Shown here: piece by piece, positions 21,024-38,107 of the stretch
Layout of the letters: every line of letters begins with the position of its first letter
How positions within the stretch are numbered: position 1 is the first letter of the stretch
Origin: Pseudomonadota bacterium
GTDB lineage: Bacteria > Pseudomonadota > Gammaproteobacteria > Steroidobacterales > Steroidobacteraceae
DNA: 64,000 bases
Reading direction: 5' to 3'
NCBI GenBank assembly: GCA_016704655.1
Contig: JADIZR010000007.1
Location: 1,348 to 65,347, forward strand
The notes under the pieces: model-generated
What the model was told of the DNA's origin: nothing
What the model saw: only the letters and a program-made list of their open reading frames with translations
The model's database searches: none
Position numbers and translations under genes: made by a program

Positions 21024-21714
21024 ATGACCAGCAACACCAAGGTCTGGGACCTGCCAACCCGCATCTTTCATTGGGCGCTTGCCGCCTCGTTTGCCGGTGC
21101 CTACGTCCTCTCCGAATCGGAGCGGCTGCGCAACGTACACGTTGCGCTCGGCTACACCGTTCTCGGGCTGCTCGCGTTCCGTCTCGTGTGGGGCTTCATC
21201 GGCCCGCGGTATGCGCGATTCAGCTCGTTCGTCCACAGCCCCGTCGCGGCGTTCCGCTACCTGCGCGACGAGGTGCGAGGCTGTGCTCCGCGCTACGTCG
21301 GTCATAACCCTGCGGGCAGCTGGGCTGTCTTCGGGCTGCTCATTCTCGGCGTGGCCACCGGCGTAACCGGCTACCTCAACTTCAACGAGCAGGGCGGCGA
21401 GTCGATGGAGGACCTGCACGAGGTCTTCGCCAGCGCCTGGCTCGTGCTCGTTGGCCTGCACATTCTTGGCGTCGCCTTCAGCAGCTTGATGCAGCGCGAA
21501 AACCTCGTGCACTCGATGATCACCGGCTTCAAGCGTGGCGTTGCCGAAGGCACCGAGCCACGCAATGCCCGTGGCCTCGGGCTGGCGATGGTCGCTGCGA
21601 TTCTCGGCTTCTGGGGCTGGACCGCTACCTCCGGAGGCGTGGCGCCGGGTGCCGGACCCGGGACAGGGCGAACAATCCGAACTGGCGACAGAAAGCGAAA
21701 CCGACGACGATTGA
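21024..21714 (+). CDS. cytochrome b561-family membrane protein (PF01292-like), probable frameshift in the 3' tail
   Basis: VWDLPTRIFHWALAASF...HNPAGSWAVFGLL...LHEVFASAWLVLVGLHILGV. The annotated ORF runs to 21974 as an Arg-rich tail overlapping the response regulator by ~250 nt. In the +1 frame it ends ...GQGEQSELATESETDDD* at 21712-21714, 3 nt before the regulator ATG. Confidence 0.7.
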
Positions 21715-21717
21715 GAC

Positions 21718-22380
21718 ATGCGAATCCTGCTGGTCGAAGACGATGCATTGCTCGGCGACGCACTACAGGTCGGCCTGCGCGAGCATGGCTTCGCGGTCGA
21801 GTGGATCAGAGACGGCGCGGCAGGAGAAGCTGCGCTGGCCTCCGACGAATTCACGGCAATCGTGCTCGACCTGGGGTTGCCGCGCATGTCCGGACTCGAA
21901 CTGCTGCAGCGTGTGCGAAATCGCGGAGATCACACGCCCGTGATCATCCTCACTGCGCGAGAAGCCGTCGATGATCGCGTGCGCGGCCTCGATCTCGGCG
22001 CCGACGACTACGTCGTGAAGCCTGTCGCACTCAAGGAGCTCGCGGCCCGACTGCGAGCCGTTGCTCGTCGCGCGCAGGGCATTGCGAGTGGATCGATCAT
22101 CGTGGGCAGCCTGTCGCTGGACCTCGCCTCGCGTGCCGTAACGTTCGAAGGCAATCCAGTCGAACTGCAGCCGCGCGAGTTCGCGCTGTTGCAGGAACTG
22201 GTGTTGCGTGCGGGCCGGGTCGTCACACGCACTCAGCTGGAGACCCAGCTGTACGAATGGGACCGCAGCATCGACAGCAATGCAATCGAGGTTCACGTCC
22301 ATCATCTGCGGCGCAAGCTCGCACCCACGCTCATCCGGACAGTGCGTGGCGTTGGCTACATGATCCCGCGCGAAGACTGA
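21718..22380 (+). CDS. OmpR/PhoB-family response regulator
   Basis: MRILLVEDD...DLGLPRMSGLELL receiver domain plus a winged-helix C-terminus. Confidence 0.9.
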   Translation: MRILLVEDDALLGDALQVGLREHGFAVEWIRDGAAGEAALASDEFTAIVLDLGLPRMSGLELLQRVRNRGDHTPVIILTAREAVDDRVRGLDLGADDYVVKPVALKELAARLRAVARRAQGIASGSIIVGSLSLDLASRAVTFEGNPVELQPREFALLQELVLRAGRVVTRTQLETQLYEWDRSIDSNAIEVHVHHLRRKLAPTLIRTVRGVGYMIPRED

Positions 22381-22383
22381 AAC

Positions 22384-23737
22384 GTGCGAACTCACTCGAT
22401 CCGCCGGCATATGCTCACGCTGCTGCTACTCACGCTCACCGGCACGTGGCTGGCGTCTGCGGCCCTGACTTACCGCGAAGCGCATCGGGGCATCGATGCC
22501 TTGCTCGACGCACATCTGGCCCAGGCCGCGCGGATGCTGGTGGCGCAGGCGGGCCACGAACTCGAGGAACTCGACTTCGATGAGAATTCGACGCCCGCCG
22601 GACTTCCGCACCAAGGTTGCCTTCCAGGTGCGCGAGGCGGATGGGACGCTCATTCTTCGCTCAGCCAACGCCCCGACGACGCCGTTCGCCGGGCCGGTCA
22701 GCGGTTTCAGCGAAGCTGTGTTCGGTGACATTTTCTGGCGCGTGTATTCGGCAACCGAAGCCGCGCAGGGCGTGGTCGTGCACGTGGCGGAAGACCACGC
22801 AACGCGCGAACGGATCGCGCGACGCGTCGCCCTGAGCGCACTCGTCCCACAGCTCGTCGCACTGCCCCTGCTCGGGCTCGCGATCTGGTGGGTCGTTGGT
22901 CGTTCGCTGCGTCCGTTACGGCGGCTGGCGGAGCAACTCGCCCACCGCAGCCCCGACGATGTTCGGCCGCTGGCCGCGGGACCGATGCCCGTCGAGTTGA
23001 CGAGTCTCGCCGAACGGCTCGAGGAACTCCTGTCGCGGGTTCGTGACTCGCTCGATTCAGAACGACGGTTTACCTCGCATGCTGCCCATGAATTGCGTAC
23101 GCCGGTCTCTGCAATGCGCGCGCAGGCGGAGGTGGCGTTGGCAACCATTGACCCTGACGTCCGCGACGCGGCACTGCGTCATGGCATCGAGGCCTGCGAT
23201 CGAATGACACGGCTCGTGACGCAGCTGATGCAGCTTGCCCGTGTGGACGAAGCCGGTCACCTTGCAAGTGCGACTTCGTGCGAACTGCGTGCGATTGCGG
23301 AACGTGTGCTGGCGGACAGCGCGCCGGCAGCAATGCAGGATGGAAATTCGGTAGCGCTGGAGGCGTCGGATCCCGGGCGCGTTCTTGGCGACGGCGCATT
23401 GCTCGAGGCGCTGGTGCGTAACCTGGTCGACAACGCACTTCAACATGGCGGACCACACGGCGAGGTACGGGTGGGGCTGGTGCAGCATGACCGCCAGATC
23501 CGGCTCACCGTCGAGGACACGGGACCCGGTGTGACACCGGAAACACTCGAACGACTTGGCCGACGTTTTTACCGCGCGGCTGAAGCGACGGCCACGGGCA
23601 GCGGACTGGGGCTATCGATCGTCAAGCGGATCACGGAGTTGCACGGCGGCTGCGTGAGCTTTCGCAATGGCGATGCCGACCGTGGGCTGCGGGTCGAGGT
23701 CACGATCCCAATGCAGGGCTGCGAGCGTTCGAATTAG
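22384..23737 (+). pseudogene. sensor histidine kinase (QseC/PmrB-like) split by a 1-nt frameshift
   Basis: The N-terminal TM and sensor part (ORF 22384..22728, ...AQAGHELEELDFDE) continues in the +1 frame as FRTKVAFQVREADGTLILRSANAP... It includes the H-box FTSHAAHELRTPV and an HATPase domain (ORF 22496..23737). The frame change lies within ~22585-22606. Confidence 0.8.
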
Positions 23738-25755
23738 CTCGATCGGATGCGTGCCGCAACGGCGTCAAAGCCGCGCGCGGCTGCCGCATCGGCTGCGGCA
23801 ATCCCGTCACGGTTGCGCAGTGTCTTCTTCGCACCCGCCTGCAGCAACAGGTCGACCACGTCGCCCGCGCCTGCCTGACTCGCCAGGATCAGCGCGGTAT
23901 CGCCGAACGTGTTCTGCGCATCCAGCCCAACTCGCAATGCGACCAGCCTGCGCACGATCACGGCGTGGTTGCCGCGAGCCGCGAGCATCAGAAGTGTGTC
24001 GCCCGAGCGGCTGAGTGCCTGCACCTCGGCGCCTGCACGCAGCAGCTTGTCGAATGCCGCGTCGTTGCCGCGCGCCGCCGCGCAGGCGATGGGCGTAACG
24101 CCGTCGGCGGCCGCCGCATTCACATTGGCTCCGGCACCCAGCAGCAGCGCAAGGACCGCGGCGTCATCGCGGCACGCAGCGTGCCAAAGCGCGGTGTACC
24201 CGGTGGCATCTGTCGTTTCAGGACTCGCACCCGATCGCAGCAACAGCGACACCATGGCCGCATCGCCTCGCTGCGTCGCGAGGACCAACGACGCGTCATC
24301 GCCCTTGCCCGTGTCGGCTCTGGCTCCGTGCGCCAGCAACACCTGCACGATGCCTGCATTACCCCGGCGAACCGCGGTAGTGAAAGGCGCGCCGTCGCTG
24401 GCGCCATGCTCGTTCGGATTGGCACCGCGCTCGAGCAGCATCCGCACGATGTCCTTGCGTCCGTGACTGACGGCCACGCCCAGCGGTGTGTGGCCCGCGC
24501 GATCCGGGCGCGTCGGCGACGCGCCTGCTGCGAGCAGCACACCGACGCTGGCGGACGAAGACGCGGCGATGGCGACCTGCAGTGCTGGCTGGCCAGCGGC
24601 CGTCGTAGCCTCCGGGTCGCCGCCCCGGCCGAGCACCGATTTCAGCATGGCCGGATCGGTGCGACTTGCTGCGAGCGCCACGTCCGGCCAACCGGCATAG
24701 GCATCGCCTGCCGCAGCGCGAAGAATTGGGCCAGCCGACCTTGGGCCGGGTCCGGCGCCCGTAGTGCGCCTGCGCGCCGGTTGTGCGCCGTGCTGGACCA
24801 GGAAGCCGGTGACCGCGTCCTGTCTTGATTGCACCGAGTAATCCACGGCGCTCCAGCCGCCCGCATTACGCAACTTTGGGTCAAGGCCCGCGGCCACCAG
24901 GCGCTCGGACTGTGTGACGCGGCCACGGCGCGCCGCGTAGAGCAGAGCCGAGTTCCCGAGCGCATCCACCGCGGCAATGTCGGGTTTCGACAGCATCAGC
25001 ACTTCCAGGGCGTCCGCGCGCTCGGCCGTCGCGGCCAGCATCAAGGGTGTGATTCCCTGCGCGTCGATCGCATCGACTCGGGCGTCGTGTGCAACCAGCC
25101 AGCGCACCGATTCTGCAGCGCCCGACTCGGCTGCGTGATGCAGCACCGAACGACGGAATGCGTCGCTGGCATCTTCCGGCAGTAGCGGCCAGAGCGCGGC
25201 CAGCGTGTCGACGTCACCGCGGCGCACAGCTGCGATGGTCATCGACAAGGTCACTGCGGGTTCGGTTGCAAGGACGCGAGGATCCACTTGCAGTGGCAAC
25301 TGGCCTGCCTGCAGCAGGCGCGCCGCATCGGCGTGCCCAGCCGCCGCGGCCGTGTCGAGCCAGGTCCGTGCCGCTGATTCGTTTGCAGGCGAGTCGTACG
25401 CCGCAAGCGCTGCCAGTGCATACGCCGCGCGTGGCTCGCCCTTGGCTGCCGCGGCCTCGAAGAGAGTCCGCGCACGTTGCGAGTCCTCGCCGACGCCGAG
25501 ACCGGCCAGGTACAGGGTGCCCAACAGGTATTGCGCGCGTGAATCGCCGGCCAGCGGATCGGTCGCGAGCCGCCCGGCTGCATCCGCGAATTGCTTCAGA
25601 CGCAGCGCGCTCTTGGCCGGCTCGAGCAGGTCCGGCGCCGCGAACTTTGATGGAGTTGCGGCAACTGCCTGCACTGCGCCCAACGCACCGAACGAACACA
25701 GGAGCAGGGTGGCCAGCGCGGCGGCGCGAGCAGCTGAAGGGTCATGCCGTCCCAT
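23734..25755 (-). CDS. secreted Sel1-repeat plus ankyrin-repeat protein
   Basis: Signal peptide MGRHDPSAARAAALATLLLCSFGALGAVQAVAA. Sel1-like repeats (AQYLLGTLYLAGLGVGEDSQRARTLFEAAA) are followed by ~12 ankyrin repeats (G.T.L..AA..G....V..LL..GA). Confidence 0.8.
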   Translation of the reverse strand: MGRHDPSAARAAALATLLLCSFGALGAVQAVAATPSKFAAPDLLEPAKSALRLKQFADAAGRLATDPLAGDSRAQYLLGTLYLAGLGVGEDSQRARTLFEAAAAKGEPRAAYALAALAAYDSPANESAARTWLDTAAAAGHADAARLLQAGQLPLQVDPRVLATEPAVTLSMTIAAVRRGDVDTLAALWPLLPEDASDAFRRSVLHHAAESGAAESVRWLVAHDARVDAIDAQGITPLMLAATAERADALEVLMLSKPDIAAVDALGNSALLYAARRGRVTQSERLVAAGLDPKLRNAGGWSAVDYSVQSRQDAVTGFLVQHGAQPARRRTTGAGPGPRSAGPILRAAAGDAYAGWPDVALAASRTDPAMLKSVLGRGGDPEATTAAGQPALQVAIAASSSASVGVLLAAGASPTRPDRAGHTPLGVAVSHGRKDIVRMLLERGANPNEHGASDGAPFTTAVRRGNAGIVQVLLAHGARADTGKGDDASLVLATQRGDAAMVSLLLRSGASPETTDATGYTALWHAACRDDAAVLALLLGAGANVNAAAADGVTPIACAAARGNDAAFDKLLRAGAEVQALSRSGDTLLMLAARGNHAVIVRRLVALRVGLDAQNTFGDTALILASQAGAGDVVDLLLQAGAKKTLRNRDGIAAADAAAARGFDAVAARIRSS

Positions 25756-27051
25756 ATTTCGTCTCCACGTGAATCCCGACTCGCCGCAGGAAGTCGGAGG
25801 GCAGGATGCCGCCGGCGCTGACGATCACCGCGTCGTTCGGCAGAATCAGGTGACCGTCCTGGCTGCGCAGCAGAACCCGCTCCTGCTCGATGCGCTCGAC
25901 CTTTGACTGCAGCAGCAGTTGCAACTGTCCGGCGCGTTCGGCAGCGGCGATCCGGTCGCGGTTGCGGGGCTTGGCACGCGTGAACGCGTCGCCACGATAG
26001 GAGAGTGTGACCTGGCCGCCCGCTTCCGCGACGCTGGCAGCCGCCTCCAGGGCGCTGTCACCGCCACCCACGACCAGGACGCGCTGTCCGCGGTACTGCT
26101 CCGGGTCGATCAACCGGTAGACGACTTTGGGCAAGTCCTCGCCTGTCACGTCGAGCTTGCGTGGCGTGCCGCGCCGGCCGATCGCCAGCAGTACTTTCGC
26201 TGCCCGGTATTCCGCGAGTGAGGTCCGAACGATGAAGCCTTGCGCACCATCGCGATCGACGCTCTCGACGCGCTCACGATACCGCATGCTGCCGGCCACC
26301 CCGGTCTTGCGTTCGATATCCTGCCAGAACGCAAGCAGGTCTTCCTTGGAGGTCTGGCGAAAGCTGACCTTGCCCACCAATGGAATTTCTGCCGGTTGCG
26401 TCATCACGAGCTTGGCCCGCGGATACTGGAAGACGCTGCCGCCAAGACTCTCCTGTTCGATCGTCACGAATTGCATCTTGTGCGACTTCGCGGCAAGGCT
26501 GGCCGAAAACCCTGCGGGACCCGCACCCACGATCACGAGATCCAGTTGCCCTGGGATGGCTGTGCGCAGCTTGCGATGGATCGCGTCGACCGCCTGCCTG
26601 CCCTGCGCCAGCGCGTTGCGAATGAGGCCCATTCCCCCCAGTTCCCCCGCAACAAAGAGCCCCGGCACGGTCGACTCGAACTCCGGGCTCAGCAATGGAA
26701 TCTCCACGCCACGGCGTTCCGTGCCGAAAACAAGCGTGATCGCGTCCGCAGGACACGCGGCACGGCACGCACCGTGCCCGATGCAATCCGTCGGACTCAC
26801 CAGGTGCGCCTTGCCGTCGATCAGCCCAAGCACATGGTGTTCCGGTTGTTCCGGACAGGCTTTCACGCACGATCCGCACCCGATGCAACGGACGGGATCG
26901 ATCACGGGATGCAGGGAAGCGGGTCGATCAAGCCCGCGGCGACCGACTGCTCCCGCACGGTGCGGCTCGCATCCTCGTGTCGTCTACGCCGGACGAGGTA
27001 CCAGCCCCATATCAGTAAGAGTGGCAGCAGGTAGACGGCGAGCAACGACAT
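25742..27051 (-). CDS. membrane-anchored 2x[4Fe-4S] ferredoxin-domain / FAD-NAD(P)-binding oxidoreductase; N-terminal anchor is in another frame
   Basis: ORF 25742..26905 has CIGCGSCVKACPE and CIGHGACRAACP clusters, then VIVGAGPAGFSASLAAK and a thioredoxin-reductase-like fold. The ATG 27051 frame upstream encodes MSLLAVYLLPLLLIWGWYLVRRRRHE...AAGLIDP and shifts by -1 near GGG 26921-26923 into ASLHPVIDPVRCIGCG. Alternatively the gene simply starts at GTG 26905. Confidence 0.7.
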
Positions 27052-27256
27052 CGATGTTGAGCCTGCAATCGTCGAGGGTAGTCGCGGTCGACGCATGCGG
27101 CAAACATAGCGCCTGGAGCAAGCCTCGCATCCCGCTCGCCCGCACGGTGTCGACTGCGTCACGATTACATCAACTAATCGTTCGGGTCGGTGTCCCTCAA
27201 CCTCCCGCCTCGCTATGTTCTCGTCTCCGGTCGACTCCGACTGGCGGGAGACGACG

Positions 27257-27898
27257 ATGCAGACGAGAAATGCCGCGCTGATCGCGCTGGCGGGTTTTGC
27301 ACTGGGAGTGTTCGTCGGCAAGGGACCGACCGTATTCGAAACTGACAGCACGACCGACACGCTCGAGCCCGTTACCGGGATGGCTTCGGTGCCGGTCGGC
27401 CATCCGCGCCTTGCAGAACGCGGTCTCGGCGATGTCGTGATGACGACATTACAGATGCGCGCCGCGCCTGCTGCCAATGCGTCGGCGATGGTGCCAGGCG
27501 CTGCTGCGCGTGCCAGATCGACGGACCTGATCGCGCAGGCCGACGACCTCCGGCGCCAACGAAGATCCGGCGAAGCCGTCGAGGCCTACCGTCGCGCTGC
27601 GGCCTCGGGCCGCATGAACGCGGATTCCTGGGCTGACTACGCCGATGCACTGGCTTCGGCCGGATCGAGCCTCAAGGGAGCGCCCGCGGATGCGCTGGCG
27701 CAGGCGCTCGCGCTCGACCCGCGGCATCCCAAGGCTTTATGGCTCAAAGCCAGCCTCGAGCACGAGGAACACCACTACCGCGACGCCGTCAGCACGTGGC
27801 GCAACCTGCTGGCCGTGGTGCCAGCCAATTCGTCCGACGCCCGCATCATCGAAGCGAACATCGCCGAAGCGTCGCGACTTGCCGCCGGCCAGGGCTGA
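27257..27898 (+). CDS. membrane-anchored TPR protein resembling the C-terminal (apocytochrome chaperone) part of CcmI/CycH/NrfG
   Basis: TM anchor MQTRNAALIALAGFALGVFVG. C-terminal region is ALALDPRHPKALWLKASLEHEEHHYRDAVSTWRNLLAVVPANSSDARIIEANIAEA. Confidence 0.55.
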   Translation: MQTRNAALIALAGFALGVFVGKGPTVFETDSTTDTLEPVTGMASVPVGHPRLAERGLGDVVMTTLQMRAAPAANASAMVPGAAARARSTDLIAQADDLRRQRRSGEAVEAYRRAAASGRMNADSWADYADALASAGSSLKGAPADALAQALALDPRHPKALWLKASLEHEEHHYRDAVSTWRNLLAVVPANSSDARIIEANIAEASRLAAGQG

Positions 27899-27900
27899 CA

Positions 27901-28872
27901 ATGACTGCACAACGCCTTCTCCGGGAACGGTATGACGATGTCGTCGACGAAAGCGCGCCGCGCATCACGACGCCTGCAACCGTTGACACCTCCCGCAAGA
28001 AAGTTGCCGCTCCAGGCGCGGCAGCCGCCAAGGGAGCGGCGAACCGCAGCCGGTTGCTCACGCCAGCCAGCATCTACTTCATGGCCGTCCTCGCAGCGAT
28101 CGCCTTCGGCATCAACCTGCCGACGTCCGCTTACCTCTCCCCGCAGTCCGGTCTCGGCTATGCGCTCGGAATCGCCGGCGGCAGCGCGATGTTGCTGCTG
28201 CTCCTCTATCCGGTCCGCAAGCGAATGCCGAATGCACGCTACCTCGGGTCCACGCGCGCCTGGTTCAGGCTGCACATGACGCTCGGCATCTTCGGGCCCG
28301 CGCTCATCCTGTTTCATTCGAACTTCAGCCTTGGCGCGACCAACAGCAACGTCGCGCTGGTCTGCATGCTCATCGTTTCCGGCAGCGGACTCTTCGGCCG
28401 GTACTTCTACGGTCACATCCACCAGGAACTGAATGGACGCGAAGCCACGCTCGACGAACTGCGGGAGTTCTCGAGCCGGCTGCAACTGACGTCGTCGGTG
28501 TCCTTCCTGCCTGCGCTGGCGCGGCACATCGACGCGGAACAGACCGTCATCGAGCGCCGCTTTGCGGCGACCGCGCTGCTGCTGCAACCGCTGCTGGGTG
28601 CAGCTTGGGCAATCGGCGCAAGACGTCGACTGCGGCGTGCAGTCCGTGAAGCCATTGCTGCGGGAGCCGACCGTCGTCACGACCCGACCCGCGAATCGCT
28701 GCAACTGATCGCGTATCGCTACATCGACGATCGCATCAGCGCGGCGCGGCGCGTGCTCGAGTTTCGTGCTTTCCAGAAGCTCTTCTCGCTGTGGCACGCC
28801 TTGCACCTGCCGCTCTTCGTCATGCTCATCATCGCCGGGACCGTCCATGTGGTCGCGGTACACATCTACTGA
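27901..28872 (+). CDS. polytopic membrane protein with two His-x13-His pairs (putative dihaem b-type cytochrome)
   Basis: ATG 27901 lies 2 nt after the previous TGA. About 5-6 TM helices. One helix carries RLHMTLGIFGPALILFHSNF (His and His+14). The last helix carries WHALHLPLFVMLIIAGTVHVVAVHIY (His and His+14). Confidence 0.6.
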   Translation: MTAQRLLRERYDDVVDESAPRITTPATVDTSRKKVAAPGAAAAKGAANRSRLLTPASIYFMAVLAAIAFGINLPTSAYLSPQSGLGYALGIAGGSAMLLLLLYPVRKRMPNARYLGSTRAWFRLHMTLGIFGPALILFHSNFSLGATNSNVALVCMLIVSGSGLFGRYFYGHIHQELNGREATLDELREFSSRLQLTSSVSFLPALARHIDAEQTVIERRFAATALLLQPLLGAAWAIGARRRLRRAVREAIAAGADRRHDPTRESLQLIAYRYIDDRISAARRVLEFRAFQKLFSLWHALHLPLFVMLIIAGTVHVVAVHIY

Positions 28873-28890: not shown

Positions 28891-30456
28891 ATGCCCCGCT
28901 GGCACAGCGCCTGCCGACTCCTGTTCGCGATCCTGGGCCTGACGATGTCACCGTTGAGCGCCCGAGCGGCGAACCTCGAGACGTTGCTGATGCCCGGGCC
29001 GGTCATCGCGGGTCACGCGAAATACGAACAGGAGTGCTCGCGCTGCCACGATCGCGCGGATCGTTCGCGGCAGGCGGTCCTCTGCCGCACTTGTCATGAG
29101 CCCGTTGCCGCCGATATTGCGCAACACAAAGGATTCCATGGTCGATTGCGCGGAGCAGAGGCCGCCCAGTGCGGCGCCTGCCACACCGAGCACAAGGGCC
29201 GGCCGGCCGACATCGTCAAGCTCCAGCCGGCTTCGTTCCCGCATGCCCAGACGGACTTTCCGCTGCAGGGAGCACACGCGACAGTAGCGTGCACGGCTTG
29301 CCACCAGGAAGGCCGCAAACATCGCGAAGCGGCGTCCGCGTGCGTCGAGTGTCACAAGCAGGACGACCTGCACGAGGGCAAGCTTGGCCGCGATTGCTCC
29401 AGCTGCCACGACGCCGGAGGCTGGTCACGCGTGCGGTTTGATCACGCAAAGACCCGGTTCGCGTTGACCGGCAAACATGTGCAGGCGACCTGTGCGTCCT
29501 GCCACCTGGGCAACCGGTACAAGGACACCCCAACCCAGTGCGCTGCCTGCCACGCGCCTGATGACGTCCACGGTGGCGCGCGCGGGGCCGGCTGCGCCGA
29601 CTGTCACCAGACGACCGGTTGGACCGGCACCAGGTACGACCACCTGAAGACCAGCGGATTTGCGCTCACGGGCGCGCACTCCTCGCTCGATTGCAGGACG
29701 TGTCACAAGACGTCGAATTTCAAGGACCCGTTGCCGAGGGACTGCGCGGGTTGCCACCGCAGCGACGATCCGCACGCCACCCGCTTCGGTGCAGGCTGCG
29801 AGAAGTGCCATGCCGCAAGCGGCTGGACGCCTTCGAGTTTCGATCACACCCGCGATGGCAAGTTCGAGCTGCGCGGAGCGCACGAGAAGCTGAACTGCCA
29901 TGTCTGCCACACCGGGGTAATCGCCAGCCAGAAGCTCGGCACGGAGTGTGCCGGATGCCACCGGGCGGATGACGTGCATGCGGGCAACCTGGACACCGAC
30001 TGCGCGCAGTGTCACGGCGTGGAGACGTGGCGCGGGCATCTGCAGTTCGATCACGACTTTTCGACGTACCCGCTCGTGGGGCTCCACGTCGCGGTTCCCT
30101 GCTTTGCGTGTCATCGCTCAACGTCGTTCAAGGACGCACGGCAGACGTGTGTCGACTGCCACGAGGCGGACGATCGTCACAAGGGCTCACTCGGCCGGGA
30201 CTGCGAAACATGCCATTCGGTCAACGGCTGGAACCTGTGGCAGTTCGATCACGGCAAATCCACCAAGTTCGCCCTGACGGGTGCGCACTCGAAGGTGGCC
30301 TGCGCAGGCTGTCACAAGCAGCCCGCACACCTGGCGAAGCTGTCGCAGGACTGCGCGGCGTGCCATGCCGAGGACGACGTGCACCTCGGTCAGTACGGTC
30401 GGCAATGCCAGCGCTGCCACGTGACCACGACTTTCAAGGCTGCGCGGCTGCAGTGA
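28891..30456 (+). CDS. 21-haem periplasmic c-type cytochrome built from seven c7-like triheme modules
   Basis: Signal peptide plus 21 CXXCH motifs. The recurring module is FDH..T.F.L.G.H....C..CH - ~11 aa - C..CH..DD.H.G..G..C..CH. Confidence 0.9.
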   Translation: MPRWHSACRLLFAILGLTMSPLSARAANLETLLMPGPVIAGHAKYEQECSRCHDRADRSRQAVLCRTCHEPVAADIAQHKGFHGRLRGAEAAQCGACHTEHKGRPADIVKLQPASFPHAQTDFPLQGAHATVACTACHQEGRKHREAASACVECHKQDDLHEGKLGRDCSSCHDAGGWSRVRFDHAKTRFALTGKHVQATCASCHLGNRYKDTPTQCAACHAPDDVHGGARGAGCADCHQTTGWTGTRYDHLKTSGFALTGAHSSLDCRTCHKTSNFKDPLPRDCAGCHRSDDPHATRFGAGCEKCHAASGWTPSSFDHTRDGKFELRGAHEKLNCHVCHTGVIASQKLGTECAGCHRADDVHAGNLDTDCAQCHGVETWRGHLQFDHDFSTYPLVGLHVAVPCFACHRSTSFKDARQTCVDCHEADDRHKGSLGRDCETCHSVNGWNLWQFDHGKSTKFALTGAHSKVACAGCHKQPAHLAKLSQDCAACHAEDDVHLGQYGRQCQRCHVTTTFKAARLQ

Positions 30457-30469
30457 TGGGAAGGCAACC

Positions 30470-33400
30470 ATGAAGCTGCAATGGATCTGCCGTGCACTGC
30501 TGCCCTTGCTGCTGCTGGCTGCGGGCACCGTGTCAGCCCAGGTGACCGGGCGCAACTTTGACCACCTGACGACAGGATTCGAGCTTACTGGCGCGCATCG
30601 TCTGCAGGCCTGCGAGAGCTGCCACGTCGACGCCGTGTTCGCCGGCACCCCACGAGTGTGCGCGGCGTGCCATGCACAGAGGTCGCGCATCGGAGCGACA
30701 CCGAAGCCGTCGGCTCACGTGGCCTCCACGGACAACTGCGGCGCGTGCCACACCACCTCGGGCTGGATACCGGCAGGACGATTCGATCACCTGGAAGCGC
30801 GCGGTGATTGCGCAACCTGCCATGACGGGCTGCAGGCGCAGGGCAAGCCGGCGGGCCACCTCACGACCAGCCAGGAGTGCTCGAGTTGCCACAGCAATAC
30901 GGCCTGGAGTCCCGCGAAATACAACCACTCCGGCATCACCGGCGTGTGCGCCTCCTGCCACGACGGCGTCAGAGCAACGGGGAAGCGGGCCACTCATCCG
31001 CAGACGACGAGCAGCTGCGAGTCGTGCCACACGATCGCGGCCTGGGCCCCGATCAGCCGCATTGACCACACGCAGGTCAGCGGCTCCTGCGCGTCGTGCC
31101 ATGACGGCACGTCTGCGACGCGCAAGCACGCATTGCATGTACCGACTACCGCGACGTGCGACACCTGCCACGTGACAGTCGCGTGGCAGCCAGCCAGCTT
31201 CGCTCACGACGGTATCGTCGACGGCTGCGCCAGCTGCCATGACGGGGCGCGGGCCACCGGCACCGGACCGCGTCACATCAAGGCGACGAACACCTGCGTG
31301 GCCTGTCATTCGATGACGGCATGGCAGCCGGCAACGCGCGTGGACCACGCCAACGTGCTGGGCAGCTGCTCGACCTGCCACGACGGACTCGCGGCCAGCG
31401 GACAGCCGGCCAATCACATTCCCACGTCGGCGGAATGCGACAGCTGCCATGCGACCAACGCCTGGACTCCCGCCAGGTTCGATCACACCGGGATCGCCAC
31501 CAACTGCGCCTCCTGTCACGACGGCACCCGCGCCACAGGCAAGAGTCCGACCCACATCAATACCTCGACGACCTGCGAGTCATGTCACGTCATCGCGGCC
31601 TGGCAACCCGCGTCGCGTGTCGATCATGCCCAGGTGCTCGGCAGCTGCGTCTCCTGTCACGATGGCACCGTTGCAACCGGCAAGAACGCCACGCACATCC
31701 TGTCCGACAATGCCTGCGAGAGTTGCCACACGACCGTCCAGTGGCAGCCCGCCAACTTTTCACACACCGGGCTGACGGAAACCTGCTCAGCCTGCCACGA
31801 CGGTACTCGGGCCACCGGCAAGAGCACGACGCACATCATCTCGAGTACCTCCTGTGGCGCCTGTCACGCGACGTTCTCGTGGCGCCCGGTCACGCAGGTC
31901 GACCACACACAGGTGAGCGGCAGCTGCGCCTCGTGCCACAACGGCACGACGGCCACCGGCAAGAACGCGGGTCACATCGCCTCCAGCACGGCCTGCGCTG
32001 CCTGCCATGCCACGCTGGCATGGAAGCCCGTCACAAGCGTGGATCATGCGCAGGTCACCGGCGCGTGCTTCTCCTGCCACGATGGCACCCTGGCCACCGG
32101 CAAGCCGTCCGCTCACATTCCGAGCGACAACTCCTGCGACAACTGCCATTCGCCGCTGGCATGGCAGCCAGCGCGCTTCGACCACACGGGCATCACGGTC
32201 AACTGCGCCAACTGTCACGACGGCATCAAGTCTCAGGGCAAGCCGACGACGCACATAACCAGCAGCAGCACGTGCGAGTCCTGTCACGCCGTGGCGGCCT
32301 GGAAGCCGGCAACGAGCGTCGACCACACCCAGGTGACGGGAACCTGCGCCAGTTGCCACGACGGCGCCAGGGCGACCGGCAAGGGCGTTAACCACATCCC
32401 GACCAGCGGCGAATGCGGCACGTGCCACGCCACGATCGCGTGGCAGCCGGCAACGTTCTCGCACACTGGTATTACCAGCGGTTGTGCCAGCTGCCACGAC
32501 GGGATCAAGGCGCCGGGCAAAAACGCCACGCACCTGTTCACGTCATCGACCTGCGAAGCCTGCCACTCCGTGACGACCTGGAAGCCCGCGACCCGCGTCG
32601 ACCACGCGCAGGTGCAGGGTTCGTGTTCGAACTGCCACAACAACATCAAGGCGACGGGCAAACCGGCGACGCACGTCGTTACGACGTCCGAATGCAGCAT
32701 GTGCCACGGCACGCAGGCCTGGAAGCCAGCGACGGGCTTCACGCACGACGGCATCACGGCCGCATGCGCGACCTGCCACAACGGCGTGAACGCGACGGGC
32801 AAGAACACCAGTCACCTGCAGACGAGCAATACCTGCGAGTCCTGCCATACCCCCACTGGCTGGAAGCCGGCGGCGAAGGTGGACCACACACAGGTCATCG
32901 GCACCTGCTTCTCGTGCCACAACGGCACGCTTGCGACCGGCAAGAACTCGGGTCACATCGCAAGTGACAACGCGTGCGACAGCTGCCACCAGTCGACGGC
33001 GTGGAAGCCGACGATCCGGGTCGATCACGCGCACGTCACCGGAACGTGTTCCAGCTGCCACGATGGCGTGCAGGCGGCGGGCAAGCCCACCACGCACCTG
33101 CCGACGACAGCCGAGTGCGGCAGCTGTCATTCAACCCTGGCCTGGACACCGGCGAAGGTGGATCACACCAGCATCACGAACTGCAAGGGTTGCCACAACG
33201 GCTCCAGCGCGACGGGCCCGTCGACCAGCCACATGACCTTCCCGGTCAACAGCTTCGACTGCAACCAGTGCCACACCACGACGGCCTGGTCGCCGAACAC
33301 GTTCAAGCACCGCGTGGGTGGCGGCTACCCGGGCGATCATCGTGTGGCGCTGACCTGCAGGAGCTGTCACACGACCGGCACGGATGCCGCCACCTGGCGC

Positions 33401-33610
33401 ACGCCGGCCTACAAACCCGACTGCGCAGGTTGCCATTCCAGCAATTTCAAGCCCGATCCGCACACCAAGTACGGCAACGTGAAGTACACCGTCAGTGAAC
33501 TGCGTAACTGCTCGGGAGCGTGCCACACCTATACGGACTCCACGCTCACGAAGATCTTGAAGAGCCGCGCCGGTCCGGAACATCGCATCACGGACACGGA
33601 ACTTCACTGA
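30470..33610 (+). CDS. giant multihaem c-type cytochrome: 41 CXXCH plus one CX3CH
   Basis: Sec signal MKLQWICRALLPLLLLAAGTVSAQ. There are 41 CXXCH motifs at ~23-aa spacing plus a terminal CSGACH. Consensus repeat is C.SCHDG..ATGK...H..T...C..CH...AW.PA..VDH..V.G. Confidence 0.9.
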   Translation: MKLQWICRALLPLLLLAAGTVSAQVTGRNFDHLTTGFELTGAHRLQACESCHVDAVFAGTPRVCAACHAQRSRIGATPKPSAHVASTDNCGACHTTSGWIPAGRFDHLEARGDCATCHDGLQAQGKPAGHLTTSQECSSCHSNTAWSPAKYNHSGITGVCASCHDGVRATGKRATHPQTTSSCESCHTIAAWAPISRIDHTQVSGSCASCHDGTSATRKHALHVPTTATCDTCHVTVAWQPASFAHDGIVDGCASCHDGARATGTGPRHIKATNTCVACHSMTAWQPATRVDHANVLGSCSTCHDGLAASGQPANHIPTSAECDSCHATNAWTPARFDHTGIATNCASCHDGTRATGKSPTHINTSTTCESCHVIAAWQPASRVDHAQVLGSCVSCHDGTVATGKNATHILSDNACESCHTTVQWQPANFSHTGLTETCSACHDGTRATGKSTTHIISSTSCGACHATFSWRPVTQVDHTQVSGSCASCHNGTTATGKNAGHIASSTACAACHATLAWKPVTSVDHAQVTGACFSCHDGTLATGKPSAHIPSDNSCDNCHSPLAWQPARFDHTGITVNCANCHDGIKSQGKPTTHITSSSTCESCHAVAAWKPATSVDHTQVTGTCASCHDGARATGKGVNHIPTSGECGTCHATIAWQPATFSHTGITSGCASCHDGIKAPGKNATHLFTSSTCEACHSVTTWKPATRVDHAQVQGSCSNCHNNIKATGKPATHVVTTSECSMCHGTQAWKPATGFTHDGITAACATCHNGVNATGKNTSHLQTSNTCESCHTPTGWKPAAKVDHTQVIGTCFSCHNGTLATGKNSGHIASDNACDSCHQSTAWKPTIRVDHAHVTGTCSSCHDGVQAAGKPTTHLPTTAECGSCHSTLAWTPAKVDHTSITNCKGCHNGSSATGPSTSHMTFPVNSFDCNQCHTTTAWSPNTFKHRVGGGYPGDHRVALTCRSCHTTGTDAATWRTPAYKPDCAGCHSSNFKPDPHTKYGNVKYTVSELRNCSGACHTYTDSTLTKILKSRAGPEHRITDTELH
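30690..33240 (+). repeat. in-frame tandem repeats (~138-141 bp, ~18 copies) inside the 41-haem cytochrome gene
   Basis: Periodic TGC..TGCCACGACGGC / GCCTGGCAGCC / GTCGA(C/T)CAC blocks. Copies are clearly diverged at the nucleotide level. VDH..V.G.C and F.HTGI...C subtypes partly alternate, giving a ~280-bp super-repeat. Confidence 0.85.
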
Positions 33611-35986
33611 TGCGCCCAGGTATTCGACTGCTGCTCGCCGCCAGCGCCGTCCTGGCCAACCTGGCGGCCACTCCGCTCCGGGCACAGGGCCGGATCGTCG
33701 AAGACGTCGTGGCGAGCGAGCAACGCGGCTACGTGTCCGTTACGCTGCTCTTCAGCTGTTCGATGCGCTACCTGTCGCACACGCCGGCTACCGATGGCGA
33801 AGCATTGCAGGTCCGCTTCTCGGCGGGCCCGGATTGTGGCCGGACATCTGCCTCGGAACCGCAGCCGCTGCTGGCCGGCGCGGCGGGTTTCGTGCGCTCG
33901 GTCGACGTCGTGCGACCGTTCGGCTCGGAGGTCCAGGTCCGGATCGGCTGGTCGAAGCCCGAAACGTTCGTGCTGACGCCTTCGATCGACGGGCGCCTGT
34001 TGCGAGTCAGGCTGCTGCGCACCGAGACACCGCAGGTTACGGTGCAGGAAATGCCCCAGGGCACCTCCACGTACGCCGTAAACCTGGCCTCGTCGACCAC
34101 CCCTCACACCCGATGCACTCGCAGCCGCCGCAAAGGTCGCGGGCACGCGCACCTACGTTTCGGCGACCGTCGTCGACGAGCAGCGCTGGTACCGCCTGCG
34201 GGCCGGGCCTTTCGTCAACGAGGCGGCAGCCAGGCAGGCACTGGCCAATTCGCGCAGCGAATTCCCGAAAGCCTGGATCGCGATTTCGGATGACGACACG
34301 CTGAACGAGATCGGCACTCCTTCGGGCGTGGCGACCGTGCGGTCAACCGCCCCGCAGGTCAACGCCTCGATGACGCCGGATGAAATCAAGGGAACCCTGG
34401 CCCAGGCCAAAGTTGCGTTCCGCCACAAGGATTACGCCACGGCGATCCCGCTGCTGACGCAGATCACGCAGCAACCCGAGTTTCCGCAACGGGCCGAAGC
34501 GCAGGAAATGCTCGCTCTTGCGCGCGAACGCAGCGGCCAGGTCGCTCACGCCAAGGCCGAATACGAGGACTATCTGCAGCGGTATCCAACCGGCGACGGC
34601 CCCACGCGCGTGCGCAAGCGGCTGCAGGCCCTGGCCTGGGCCAGCCGCCCTGGTCGCAGTGGCGCGGCAGATAGCGACCATGACGAATCCCCGTGGCGAG
34701 TCTACGGCGGCTTTTCGCAGATTTATCGCCAGGACCAGAGTCACCTCGAGAGCGGTCTCGCCGTCAGCGACCAGACGACGCAGAACGCCTTGCTCAGCGA
34801 CGTGAGTCTCGTTGCGCGTCGCCACGGCGAACGCTTCGACTTCACCACACGCGCGAGCGCGGGTTACAGCTACGACATGCTTGCCGACGGGCCGGGAAGC
34901 CAATCTCGAGTGTCGATGTTGTTTGCCGAGTTCGCCGACCGCATTGCAGGCTGGTACGCCCGCCTCGGCCGCCAGGCCGGCGGCTCGGCCGGACTCATGG
35001 GAACGTTCGACGGGATGCAGGCGGGGTACCAGCTGTGGCCCCGGCTGCGCGTCAATGGCTTCTTCGGCTTCCCGGTGGATTCGACACGCGAAGGGCCGGA
35101 CAGCGAGCGCAGGTTCGTCGGCATCTCTGCTGACGTCGGCACGCTCGCGAACGCCTGGGATCTCTCGTTCTATGCCGTCGACCAGCAGTATTCCGGCGTG
35201 ACGGACCGGCAGGCCGTCGGCACCGAGGTGCGGTACTTCCGGCCCGGCATCACGCTGGTCGGACTCGCGGATTTCGACATCCACTACAGCACGCTCAATA
35301 CCGTGCTGCTGCTGGGCACGTTCGCGCTGCCTGCGCGCTGGACGCTGAACCTGAACCTCGATCACCGCAAGAGTCCAGGCCTGTCGACGCGCAATGCCAT
35401 GATTGGGCAGCCAGTGCGCCGGTTCGACGAACTGTTCGGCCTGTACACACCCCAGGAGATCGAGCAACTTGCGCTCGACCGCACGTCGGAGTCGACGATG
35501 TACTCGGCGGGCGTATCGCGACCCTTCGGCGAGCGATGGCAGTGGTCGCTCGATGCGTCGACCATGACTCTCGGCTCGACGCGCGAATCGGGCGGGGTGC
35601 CCGCCACGCCGTCGTCGGGAACGGACACCGCGGTCTCGACGCAGGCCATGGGCTACGGATTGTTCGGCCGCGGCGACGTCACGTCACTGGGCCTGCAGTA
35701 CCAGACGGGCGAGAGCGCGCAGATGCTTTCGCTCGGCGTCGGCGCCCAGCTGCCTGTCGGCGAGCGTTGGCGCGTCGGCCCCCGGCTGCGCCTGGATCAA
35801 CGCAAGCTCGAGAGCGACCGGTCGACATCGCTCGTGTATTCACCGGCGCTGCGGGCGGAGATGCGCGGCAAGCACCTGACGTTCGAGGTGGAGGGCGGGG
35901 CCGAGTTCGGATCGCGCGACCTCGGCACGAGCTCCGAGGACACGTCGCGTTACTATTTCAGCCTTGGCTATCGCTATGACTTCTAG
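33610..35986 (+). CDS. outer-membrane protein: signal peptide, N-domain, SPOR domain, TPR-like region and beta-barrel; a single ORF only after correcting a 1-nt frameshift at ~34100
   Basis: ATG 33610 overlaps the TGA of the cytochrome gene. Frame 1 reads MRPGIRLLLAASAVLANLAATPLRAQG...STYAVNLASSTT, then turns Arg-rich. From the C4 run at 34100-34103 the +1 frame reads PLTPDALAAAAKVAGTRTYVSATVVDEQRWYRLRAGPFVNEAAARQALANSRSEFPKAWIA (SPOR-like). It runs without a stop into ORF 34328..35986, which has a TPR-like segment and then amphipathic beta strands ending YYFSLGYRYDF. Confidence 0.65.
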
Positions 35987-36560
35987 CGGTCATTCCGGCG
36001 GCGATGGGACACAGGTCTGCAGGACCGTCTCGGTCGCGCTGGCAGCTGGAACATTGCTCGCTGCAATCCTCATGGCAGGCTGCGCCAGCGAGCAACCGGC
36101 CGGTCCGCGCGAATACCTCGACGAACGCACTGCTGCGACGATCACGGTGGCTGGCGAACCCATGGTCTTCGCCTGCGATCGCCCCGAACTGGGTGTGAAC
36201 GCGCGCGACTACGTCACACTGACCGCTGTGGACGTCAACACGTCCGGCAGGCATGCCACGCATCTCGTGGGTTACTCCTGGTCGACGCTGGACAAGCGCG
36301 CCATCAAGGAAAGCGACAGCGACTACGAAGTCATTGCCGATGATCGAACGCTGTCGCTGCAGCCGATGCCGGACGGATTCCGCGCGATCGGCGTCAACGA
36401 ACCACCGATTCCAGTCCCTTCACGCGGCGCCCTGCCGCTGACGGCGCCGATCACCCGGGATCAGCTGCTGTTTCTGCGGGACACCTCTGGCGCGCACATC
36501 GTGCGAACGCGCGACGGGGTCACGGAACGGTTCGAACTCTGGCGCGGCCCCGGCCACTGA
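35976..36560 (+). CDS. lipoprotein of unknown function
   Basis: ATG 35976 overlaps the end of the barrel gene. Lipobox AAILMAGCASE. No recognisable domain. Confidence 0.55.
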   Translation: MTSSGHSGGDGTQVCRTVSVALAAGTLLAAILMAGCASEQPAGPREYLDERTAATITVAGEPMVFACDRPELGVNARDYVTLTAVDVNTSGRHATHLVGYSWSTLDKRAIKESDSDYEVIADDRTLSLQPMPDGFRAIGVNEPPIPVPSRGALPLTAPITRDQLLFLRDTSGAHIVRTRDGVTERFELWRGPGH

Positions 36561-37990: not shown

Positions 37991-38083
37991 CACCGACGGC
38001 GACGGTTTCACCGCGTCGTCACCGATCGCGGGTTTGTTCCCGCCTGTGCAACTCCGGCTCGACCGGACTTGCTCTGCGGGTCT

Positions 38084-38107
38084 ATATTTCGATATATTTA
38101 GAAATAT
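38084..38107. promoter_or_regulatory. candidate ArsR operator in an AT-rich island
   Basis: ATATTTC-N10-GAATAT-like inverted repeat (ATATTTC...GAAATAT) in TCTATATTTCGATATATTTAGAAATATG. It overlaps the arsR start and contrasts sharply with the ~67% GC background. Confidence 0.35.

Follow-up and report, generated by a model that had tools for sequence, protein, structure and literature searches.

What kind of gene lies at 33610..35986 on the + strand of the 64-kb window (the whole stretch of DNA that was analysed), where two reading frames in the assembly together seem to spell out a single envelope protein directly behind genes for multihaem cytochromes (MHCs)? The initial annotation had proposed a fusion of a SPOR domain, TPR and a beta-barrel that is readable only across a frameshift, which left both the integrity of the gene and the nature of its product to be explained. 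As a joint reading, to which we assign a probability of roughly 0.75, we propose that a single gene at this locus encodes the outer-membrane component of a PCC3-type cluster, that its product would be a barrel port or sheath anchored in the cell wall, and that its split into two frames is an error of the assembly or consensus.

One gene across a frameshift

The reading frames themselves are laid out as the initial annotation had described them. In the sequence TGATG, the stop codon (TGA) of the 1046-aa cytochrome gene further upstream runs into the ATG at 33610, which opens a frame-1 ORF with a signal peptide and an N-terminal domain that reads MRPGIRLLLAASAVLANLAATPLRAQG...STYAVNLASSTTPHTRC and then passes into an Arg-rich tail ending with the stop at 34291-34293. 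The +1 frame had been claimed to be open from 34082, and indeed follows a stop at 34079-34081, remains open as far as the stop at 35984-35986, reads ...LTPDALAAAAKVAGTRTYVSATVVDEQRWYRLRAGPFVNEAAARQALANSRSEFPKAWIAI and runs on without interruption into the anticipated 552-aa ORF, which begins at 34328. Direct reading of the sequence at 34100-34103 gave CCCC, the C4 run that had been placed at the junction of the two frames.

To see how this region looks elsewhere, it had been suggested to compare orthologues, and a protein search found more than 100 homologues that are each encoded by a single ORF of 790-796 aa. Among them is an intact orthologue of 792 aa (P0001) that is 99% identical to the repaired window protein; a search with P0001 as query gave 1713 homologue clusters at 50% identity, and a genome scan based on alignment A3 recovered homologues from Alpha-, Gamma- and Deltaproteobacteria, Nitrospirota and Binatia. 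Alignments with orthologous DNA from two loci (L001 and L002) revealed that the window is 2 nt short, with CCCCT in place of CCCCCTT, and this 2-nt gap at 34100-34104 (+ strand) is the sole gap in the alignment with L001 over 2379 nt. More generally, relatives have CC(C/A/G)CCCTT at this site, which is in frame in all five independent relatives that were compared as DNA, i.e., L001, L002 and three JGI metagenome contigs (L083-L085) that each carry the 6-nt in-frame form. The latter were retrieved by a degenerate pattern scan of metagenome contigs; an exact-pattern scan of such contigs gave no match. Because of the more than 100 single-ORF homologues, the lone 2-nt gap relative to L001 and the five relatives in frame, the frame-1 ORF and the +1-frame ORF are one gene encoding one protein. 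The deficit is thus 2 nt and not the 1 nt that had been supposed, and the repaired protein has 792 aa.

The choice that the initial annotation had offered, a broken gene or an error of the assembly, resolves towards the latter given three further frameshifts that hit conserved genes elsewhere in the window, at ~2815, ~22585 and 26924. The first of these splits an alkyl sulfatase gene whose repair gives a full Alkyl_sulf_dimr match (to 139/139), the second splits a sensor kinase gene whose repair gives a full 2CSK_N match (3-139/140), and the third is a change from G4 to G3 relative to L002. We also considered the overlap of the ORFs at 9579-10805 and 10586-11443 as a frameshift but attribute it instead to an over-extended N-terminus. 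The three additional frameshifts make an error-prone assembly the most probable cause, and comparison at the level of sequence suggests that the split most likely arose in assembly or consensus calling and is not biology and that the organism itself most likely has an intact gene. The missing nucleotides fall into adjacent runs of C and T; such a 2-nt loss, which requires two adjacent under-calls, is not the most frequent type of single homopolymer error. Indel errors occur in the assembly at about 1 per 16 kb, and other genes that appear split there should not be read as pseudogenes.

It is unlikely that the frameshift is true and that we are looking at a strain with a recently inactivated PCC3 outer-membrane gene, i.e., a pseudogene. 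The sequence as given is frameshifted, and the indel is found within a patch of 11 substitutions in ~130 nt relative to the 99%-identical L001, which could be a genuine variant haplotype. However, the remainder of the gene is intact with no second lesion, the related DNA is in frame in 5/5 cases, and the three other frameshifts in unrelated conserved genes within 64 kb would need a generally decaying genome. A programmed +1 ribosomal frameshift yielding the full-length protein, for which the slippery-looking C run at the junction might speak, was rejected as practically inconceivable since in all relatives the protein is read in a single frame, with 2 additional nt precisely at this site, so that a conserved shift site is not possible.

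The surrounding cytochrome cluster

The location inside a multihaem operon that had been claimed for this gene is correct in that it is the last gene behind those for a 21-haem and a 41-haem cytochrome on the + strand. [quoted passage not shown] 2017, PMC5566968). Their IMPs are characterized by ~300 aa, SGXXG, two WX3HX13H motifs and five TM helices, and their MHCs by median haem numbers of 21 and 34 at a low amino acid/haem ratio (PMC5566968). The window has this order of four genes, all on the + strand, and the same order is found in L002. Its IMP (27901..28872, +; 323 aa) displays two WX3HX13H motifs (WFRLH..H at residue 121 and WHALH..H at 298), SGLFG at residue 162 and about five hydrophobic segments, an approximate helix count obtained by a simple hydropathy scan. 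Behind it follow the “periplasmic” MHC (28891..30456, +; 521 aa), which has 21 CxxCH motifs and 24.8 aa per haem, and the large “extracellular” MHC (30470..33610, +; 1046 aa), which has 41 CxxCH and 1 Cx3CH motifs, 25.5 aa per haem and an ordinary Sec signal peptide with no lipobox.

Two further genes adjoin this core. A TPR_CcmH/CycH-like protein of 227 aa (27215..27898, +), a candidate helper of cytochrome c maturation, is syntenic in close relatives and has a tblastn match in only 3 distant loci. The divergent gene at 25745..27012 on the - strand encodes a membrane-anchored 4Fe-4S plus Pyr_redox flavoprotein and is the one that is frameshifted at 26924. Such a flavoprotein gene adjoins the cluster in 36 of 41 loci, with divergent orientation in 34, and is not mentioned beside PCC3 clusters in the published PCC3 descriptions.

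Beyond the window, the homologue is immediately preceded by genes for an IMP, an MHC of 21 or 24 haems and a large MHC in 39 of 41 distant loci that come from several phyla, and MHC homologues with 21 or 24 haems are found in most of the related loci. The locus of an Amphritea MAG (L057) encodes MHCs with 21 and 63 haems, just as published for A. atlantica (PMC5566968). Its outer-membrane protein, which has a SPOR domain, is 31% identical to the window protein over 703 aa (E 9e-115), and the IMPs are 37% identical (E 5e-52). The cluster would therefore be of the PCC3 type by the published PCC3 criteria of gene order, IMP motifs and haem content and by homology to the Amphritea MAG locus. The initial annotation had regarded the architecture as one not known from the described porin-cytochrome systems, which is not supported for the cluster and would apply solely to the SPOR, TPR and AMIN-like modules (see below). 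The PCC3 system is already known, and these modules of its “porin” appear to be undescribed: The searchable literature makes no mention of a SPOR, TPR or N-terminal domain of the PCC3 outer-membrane protein, which was published simply under the name of porin.

The same data make it highly improbable that we are dealing with an unrelated envelope protein, Tol-Pal/YbgF-like or from polysaccharide export, that merely neighbours the cytochrome genes. The protein has weak matches to the NCBIfam TPR models of BamD and YbgF, and one paralogue has been named “tol-pal system YbgF family protein” by NCBI, but the start codon overlaps the cytochrome stop and the set of IMP, MHC and MHC precedes the homologues in 39/41 loci across several phyla.

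Modules of the outer-membrane protein

The repaired protein begins with a Sec-type signal peptide (MRPGIRLLLAASAVLANLAATPLRAQ; 33610..33687, +) that is apparent from the translation, coincides with an AF2 helix at residues 2-17 and has a putative cleavage site at its end. It is followed by a predicted beta-sandwich at residues ~28-137 (33691..34020, +), modelled by AF2 with strands between residues 30 and 136 at a pLDDT of 72-94. The four best Foldseek matches of this domain in the PDB are all AMIN-bearing chains, one of AmiC (4bin) and three of PilQ (4aqz, 4av2 and 3jc8), at marginal values (E 2.6e-3 to 8e-2, TM 0.37-0.40). Searches for AMIN (Pfam PF11741) gave no match at E up to 1 in the repaired protein and none at E up to 0.01 among 39 family members, and it is from marginal fold similarity without an HMM match that we call this domain AMIN-like.

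The SPOR domain at residues ~152-226 (34063..34285, +) is the module that is interrupted by the frameshift. An HMM search with Pfam PF05036, as had been recommended, gave 30.6 bits (E 4e-7) for the repaired window protein and 32.8 bits for P0001 at a gathering cut-off of 21, and the match covers residues 153-222 and thus spans the frame junction at ~residue 164. The segment that had been recognized as SPOR-like was therefore correctly identified but does not lie wholly in the +1 frame, given that its first strand (TYAVNLASS) is encoded in frame 1. In the AF2 model, the domain has the beta-alpha-beta-beta-alpha-beta topology of SPOR (E155-162, H168-178, E182-189, E192-202, H205-215 and E223-226), and the family profile matches the SPOR structure of DamX (2lfv) with E 4.8e-6. 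Invariant N, S and W residues of the family align with Q351, S354 and W385 of DamX, which we take to be functionally important residues of the glycan site; N takes the place of the Q of DamX and FtsN throughout the family.

The C-terminal part had been described as TPR plus beta-barrel, and both modules were recovered. Five helices at residues ~257-345 (34376..34642, +; AF2 pLDDT 77-91) form a TPR module that is matched below the cut-offs by Pfam TPR_16, TPR_19 and TPR_14 and weakly by BamD- and YbgF-like models of NCBIfam. Across 39 diverse family members, Pfam detects SPOR in 37 and TPR models match most. The SPOR and TPR domains are genuine and conserved in the family, and binding to peptidoglycan is predicted from the former. 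The C-terminal 430 residues (363-792; 34694..35983, +) are predicted to form a closed outer-membrane barrel, for which the proposed strand count gave 22 strands by DSSP on the AF2 model. This barrel includes a conserved loop of ~40 aa (residues 588-628) and ends with ...GYRYDF, of which G787 to F792 are invariant. Foldseek comparison of the full-length model with the PDB found only generic outer-membrane barrels (FimD usher, porins, FadL and BcsC) at TM <=0.3, with BcsC 9b8h at TM 0.20, and yielded no family assignment.

Proposed role and relation to known systems

The mature protein would consist of an AMIN-like beta-sandwich, SPOR, TPR and a 22-strand barrel, all of them periplasmic or in the membrane. 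By analogy to MtrB around MtrA, the barrel may be the outer-membrane sheath or port in which the 21-haem periplasmic cytochrome meets the 41-haem outer cytochrome, with the TPR module as a possible surface on which a cytochrome partner docks in the periplasm. Both the SPOR and the AMIN-like domain would fasten the barrel to peptidoglycan and in this way fix, and possibly target, a conduit that crosses the cell wall, a task that falls to the AMIN domains of PilQ in type IV pili. We infer from this arrangement of modules that the protein likely serves as a peptidoglycan-anchored sheath or port for a cytochrome wire.

Alternatively, the main task of the TPR-barrel protein could be to export the large cytochrome, as a translocon or assembly factor like Slam, BcsC or PgaA, and not to form a permanent sheath. 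We consider this possible but doubtful, and it can coexist with our main explanation. The 1046-aa cytochrome has a Sec signal peptide without a lipobox, which leaves its outward route unexplained, TPR-plus-barrel architectures recur in outer-membrane export systems, BcsC 9b8h is among the Foldseek matches, and TPR_Slam has a weak match in 2/39 family members. However, the window protein has no match to the family HMMs of BcsC, PgaA or Slam in Pfam and NCBIfam and hence no membership of these families at the HMM level, the Foldseek TM-scores are low and generic, and the barrels of Slam, BcsC and PgaA exporters, which presumably have 14 to 16 strands, differ from the 22 strands predicted here. 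A role in polysaccharide export was rejected due to the absence of family HMM matches and the cytochrome gene context.

A broader view of PCC3 conduits as cell-wall-integrated trans-envelope machines rather than simple porin-cytochrome pairs is a possibility that we put forward tentatively. Their periplasm-spanning 21-haem wire might already be put in place at division sites or poles via the AMIN-like and SPOR domains, two peptidoglycan-binding modules of septal type, with the TPR module as dock, much as the AMIN domains of PilQ act for type IV pili. On the cytoplasmic side, the conserved membrane-anchored flavoprotein and dihaem-b IMP might form a split NOX/FRE-like module that links NAD(P)H to the wire. 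The searchable PCC3 literature does not describe such a reading. PCC3 is among the most widespread predicted systems of extracellular electron transfer, and no PCC3 complex is known to have been characterized biochemically. Its “porin” nearly always comes with SPOR and TPR modules, in the present protein together with an AMIN-like domain, and the combination of SPOR, TPR and the barrel motif GRQ..GG.LG.FDG is a better search signature than the counting of haems.

Compared with PCC3 as published (PMC5566968), the window cluster is alike in gene order, IMP motifs, the 21 haems of the first MHC and the very many of the second, and the ~25 aa per haem. Its outer-membrane protein and IMP are both homologous to those of the Amphritea PCC3 locus, and the 22 strands of its barrel agree with the 22 predicted for the PCC3 porin of L. 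cholodnii, both values being predictions. Unlike in the PCC3 descriptions, the present host is a Steroidobacteraceae-like gammaproteobacterium and not a known iron oxidizer; the PCC3 clusters of Sideroxydans showed no induction by Fe(II).

The MtrCAB, MtoAB and PioAB systems similarly encode an outer-membrane barrel beside a periplasmic MHC and, for Mtr, an outer MHC, and their barrel is likewise presumed to insulate a haem chain across the outer membrane. By contrast, MtrB, which we take to have 26 strands against the 22 predicted here, is without a periplasmic SPOR, TPR and AMIN extension, and Mtr-type cytochromes carry 10 haems compared to 21 and 41 in the window. Membership in the MtrB/PioB family was rejected based on gene context and on Pfam and NCBIfam searches in which the MtrB/PioB models of Pfam and TIGRFAM had no match at E up to 1. 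BcsC, PgaA, PelB and Slam share a periplasmic TPR module N-terminal to an outer-membrane barrel but have no family HMM that matches the window protein and differ in strand number and in their gene neighbours, which are glycosyltransferases or surface lipoproteins there and cytochromes and an IMP here.

With the division proteins FtsN, DamX, DedD and RlpA, the window protein has in common the Pfam SPOR match, the same fold topology and, by alignment with DamX, the W, the S and an N in place of Q. These four act within the division machinery as inner-membrane or lipoprotein components, whereas SPOR is fused here to an integral outer-membrane barrel and belongs to a respiratory cluster. The AMIN domains of the PilQ secretin and AmiC (Carter et al. 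2017, PMC5285504) offer a parallel in that PilQ is also a channel protein of the outer membrane whose N-terminal modules bind peptidoglycan, but PilQ is a multimeric secretin while the present protein would be a monomeric barrel that combines its AMIN-like domain with SPOR and TPR.

Reading frames and the lesion of the target gene

The gene at 33610-35986 (+) had been read as a SPOR/TPR/beta-barrel fusion that is legible only across a frameshift, and these coordinates and readings proved correct when the ORFs were translated and the bases inspected. Its start codon, the ATG at 33610, overlaps the TGA stop codon of a 1046-aa cytochrome gene just upstream (TGATG), an arrangement that suggests co-translation with this large cytochrome. 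Frame 1 encodes a typical Sec signal peptide, runs through ...STYAVNLASSTTPHTRC and ends in an Arg-rich tail with a stop at 34291-34293. After a stop codon at 34079-34081 the +1 frame stays open to 35986, reads ...LTPDALAAAAKVAGTRTYVSATVVDEQRWYRLRAGPF... and continues into the 552-aa ORF listed from GTG 34328; the run CCCC occupies 34100-34103.

A search among 5.8 billion proteins gave 442 matches, and almost all of the best 120 of these were single ORFs of 790-796 aa (named ones as [quoted passage not shown]), which bears out the joined reading as one gene. The intact orthologue P0001 has 792 aa and is 99% identical to the target. When the window gene was aligned at the DNA level with the loci coding for P0001 (L001) and for another relative, P0010 (L002), exactly one gap appeared over 2379 nt, with the window reading ACCACCCC--TCACACCC and the relatives ACCAC(A/C)CCCTTCACACCC. 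The window is therefore 2 nt short (C5T2 to C4T1), and the 1-nt error proposed by the initial annotation has to be replaced, as no single nucleotide was gained or lost. All three JGI metagenome contigs matched by a degenerate pattern across the lesion site carry the 6-nt in-frame form; related DNA sequences are intact at this site in five of five cases.

The 64-kb window contains four confirmed frameshifts, including the target's own. Gene-by-gene comparison with 22 kb of L002 showed a frame-breaking change from G4 to G3 at 26924 in the conserved gene for a membrane-anchored 4Fe-4S and Pyr_redox_3 flavoprotein (25745-27012, -). An alkyl sulfatase gene (2289-4359, -) is split at ~2810-2830 into ORFs 2734-4359, with Lactamase_B and with Alkyl_sulf_dimr cut at profile position 102/139, and 2289-2792, with Alkyl_sulf_C; the junction reads "GCCAAACCAGG", the break is probably one extra A, and joining the frames by hand completes the Alkyl_sulf_dimr match to 139/139. 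A sensor histidine kinase gene (22390-23737, +; ORF 22496-23737) is frameshifted at ~22585, so that the TM helix and the initial 63 positions of 2CSK_N are out of frame with the remainder; hand-joining lengthens the 2CSK_N match, which had covered only 64-139 of 140 positions, to 3-139 (30.6 to 53.2 bits). The break at 26924 and that of the target are losses in base runs. A fifth frameshift probably lies near 21660-21690 in a cytochrome b561 gene, whose ORF (21024-21974, +) has an Arg-rich tail overlapping a response-regulator gene by ~250 nt and whose alternative frame closes with "...ESETDDD*" just ahead of the response-regulator ATG at 21718.

Four frameshifts in 64 kb point to an error-prone consensus rather than to four independent pseudogenes, and our guess at the source is a long-read or mixed-strain consensus. 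Outside two short patches the window gene equals L001; of 15-17 substitutions in all, 11 fall at gene positions 428-554 (window 34037-34163), where the 2-nt indel also lies, and six at 2270-2298 (window 35879-35907). Such a distribution points to local recombination or to a consensus that is a mosaic or drawn from mixed strains, and the clustering of substitutions and indel fits the mixed-strain case. Between the broken gene and the assembly error that had both been considered, the three further confirmed frameshifts and the five in-frame relatives favor the error, and we put the probability of an assembly artefact, judged from the sequences of the window and its relatives, at about 80%. The porin gene of L. 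ochracea in PCC3, the porin-cytochrome gene cluster of He et al. 2017, is likewise split through a homopolymer sequencing error (PMC5566968).

Modules of the repaired protein

Once frame 1 and the +1 frame are joined at the C run (~792 aa), the target reads as a secreted protein that combines SPOR with a TPR module and a barrel of 22 strands. The SPOR model PF05036 matches residues 153-222 with 30.6 bits (gathering cut-off 21), so that the domain is real but straddles the frame junction: its first strand, "YAVNLASS", is encoded in frame 1 and not, as first proposed, in the +1 frame with the rest. An AlphaFold2 model from a 43-sequence alignment (mean pLDDT 76, pTM 0.63) shows a beta-alpha-beta-beta-alpha-beta unit at 155-226. 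A profile of the family's SPOR segment matched the DamX SPOR structure 2lfv (E 4.8e-6) and, weakly, the SPOR domains of RlpA and FtsN. The family's invariant N-L-x-S stands opposite Q-L-S-S of DamX, and the invariant W of "W-Y-R-L-R" opposite a DamX W; we take the aligned DamX positions Q351, S354 and W385 to be residues needed for septal peptidoglycan binding in DamX and FtsN. SPOR domains recognize septal, denuded glycan.

TPR models match residues ~263-328 below their cut-offs, and five TPR-type helices are modeled at 257-345. At the other end, a signal helix is followed by a beta-sandwich at residues 30-136. When the N-terminal 164 residues were modeled separately (pLDDT 77) and searched against the PDB with Foldseek, the four best matches were E. 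coli AmiC (4bin) and PilQ (4aqz, 4av2 and 3jc8), all AMIN-containing, at marginal E-values of 2.6e-3 to 8e-2. Given these values, and since the AMIN HMM had no match in the repaired protein or in 39 diverse family members, we label this domain AMIN-like only.

The C-terminal barrel proposed at the outset is predicted to have 22 long strands (residues 363-791), and the whole model retrieved only outer-membrane barrels in Foldseek, with low TM-scores. The C-terminal ...GYRYDF is invariant in the family, and proteins that BAM inserts into the outer membrane typically end in an aromatic residue. The C-terminal 430 residues, which hold the barrel region, match no family in Pfam or NCBIfam. Between strands 13 and 14 lies a conserved, partly helical insertion of ~40 residues with low pLDDT (aa ~588-628, window 35375-35494) in which N596, A597, G600, Q601, F606, L609, A622, D624 and T626 are invariant or nearly so; this loop could fill the lumen or contact a cytochrome.

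PCC3 context and family spread

Upstream of the target on the same strand are genes for a TPR_CcmH/CycH-like protein (27215-27898, +), a 323-aa inner-membrane protein (IMP; 27901-28872, +) with two WX3HX13H motifs and SGLFG, a 521-aa cytochrome with 21 CxxCH and, directly adjacent, the 1046-aa cytochrome with 41 CxxCH and one Cx3CH, both cytochromes having ~25 residues per heme. Hallmarks of PCC3 are an IMP of ~300 aa with two WX3HX13H motifs and SGXXG, a periplasmic and an extracellular multiheme cytochrome (MHC; median 21 and 34 hemes, respectively) and a porin (He et al. 2017, PMC5566968); the IMP motifs, high heme counts and low residues-per-heme ratio in the window agree with these. An Amphritea sp. 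locus (L057) encodes cytochromes with 21 and 63 hemes, and these are also the counts for PCC3 of Amphritea atlantica (He et al. 2017, PMC5566968). The outer-membrane protein of this locus and P0001 share 31% identity along 703 residues that include the SPOR, TPR and barrel parts (E 9e-115), and its IMP is 37% identical to that of the window (E 5e-52). By these hallmarks and by gene order, with homology traced through the Amphritea locus, the window harbors a PCC3 cluster of a Steroidobacteraceae-like host.

A search with P0001 found 1713 representative clusters at 50% identity (E <= 1e-3; 918 with E <= 1e-30), and the barrel has no Pfam family despite this number. At least 538 relatives were confirmed in a scan of 185,579 species genomes, those listed including Alpha-, Gamma- and Deltaproteobacteria, Nitrospirota, Binatia and others. 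The target is strictly syntenic with the IMP and two MHCs: among 41 loci whose upstream sequence was long enough, 39 carry, in this order and directly ahead of the homologue, an IMP with two WX3HX13H motifs, a 21- or 24-heme MHC and at least one large MHC. Of 39 diverse representatives of the family, 37 have SPOR according to Pfam and most match TPR models; SPOR is present in homologues from Amphritea, Hyphococcus luteus (an isolate), Sedimenticolaceae and Thiodiazotropha and was not detected by Pfam in one from Desulfuromonadaceae. Matched query ranges in the P0001 search place the conserved core in the TPR and barrel region and the variability in the N-terminal region. The SPOR/TPR architecture is genuine and ancient, and nearly all of the family shares it.

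In NCBI these proteins already go by the names "SPOR domain-containing" or "tetratricopeptide repeat protein", and PCC3 papers including He et al. 2017 (PMC5566968) call the outer-membrane protein only porin or beta-barrel. Nothing in the literature searched joins "SPOR domain" with multiheme and porin, or PCC3 with SPOR, TPR or AMIN. The initial annotation's view of an architecture outside described porin-cytochrome systems thus fails for the cluster, because PCC3 is already known as a bioinformatic prediction, but survives for the periplasmic modules of its outer-membrane component, which appear unremarked.

The flavoprotein gene beside the cluster is not mentioned in He et al. 2017 (PMC5566968); its product and the FRD-like diheme IMP could together make up a split, NOX/FRE-like entry point to the conduit that is linked to NAD(P)H. 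Adjoining it is the gene for a 673-aa secreted repeat protein (23734-25755, -), ankyrin- or Sel1-like by eye, with tblastn homologues beside PCC3 clusters in 20 of the fetched loci. Directly downstream of the target, a 162-aa small lipoprotein (36072-36560, +; lipobox-like LMAGC) is 89% identical in L002, had no match in any distant PCC3 locus and probably does not belong to the core system. By ORF translation, a 760-aa protein (80-2362, -) with ~8 CxxCH and a TPR-rich C-terminal half is another multiheme cytochrome, positionally unrelated to the cluster. Finally, ~3.6 kb of extra genes in L002 (14400-18090; HTH_5 regulator, ArsP permease, thioredoxin and DsbD_2) are missing from the window at ~38004-38106, an indel in an arsenic-resistance region.

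A possible wall-anchored conduit

We propose that the barrel may be the outer-membrane passage for the heme chain, analogous to MtrB for MtrA. Judging from other 22-strand barrels, such a barrel is probably wide enough for a heme-packed polypeptide. The TPR module would dock one of the two cytochromes, and the SPOR and AMIN-like domains would fasten the barrel to peptidoglycan. According to published proposals a 21-24-heme wire reaches across the entire periplasm; it must then traverse the cell wall, and a wall-binding outer-membrane partner would keep the outer and inner parts of the conduit in register. AMIN domains of PilQ bring the type IV pilus machinery to places where the cell will later divide, so the machinery becomes part of the new pole with no need for dedicated hydrolases (PMC5285504). 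Together with septal-glycan recognition by SPOR, this predicts a septal or polar placement of PCC3 conduits, and the domain architecture hints at how a widespread, uncharacterized electron conduit is anchored and installed.

The TPR-barrel might instead mainly export the large cytochrome, which has a plain Sec signal peptide without a lipobox, a function that could coexist with that of a conduit; however, the target fits none of the BcsC, PgaA or Slam-type exporters by any tested criterion, and these identities were rejected. Membership in the MtrB/PioB family was likewise rejected (no HMM match; 22 strands versus 26). The closest counterparts of the cluster are other PCC3 systems: Slit_1446-1449 of S. 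lithotrophicus ES-1 has the same gene order as the window cluster, and the PCC3 porin of L. cholodnii, with 22 predicted transmembrane regions (He et al. 2017 supplement, PMC5566968), equals the target in strand number.
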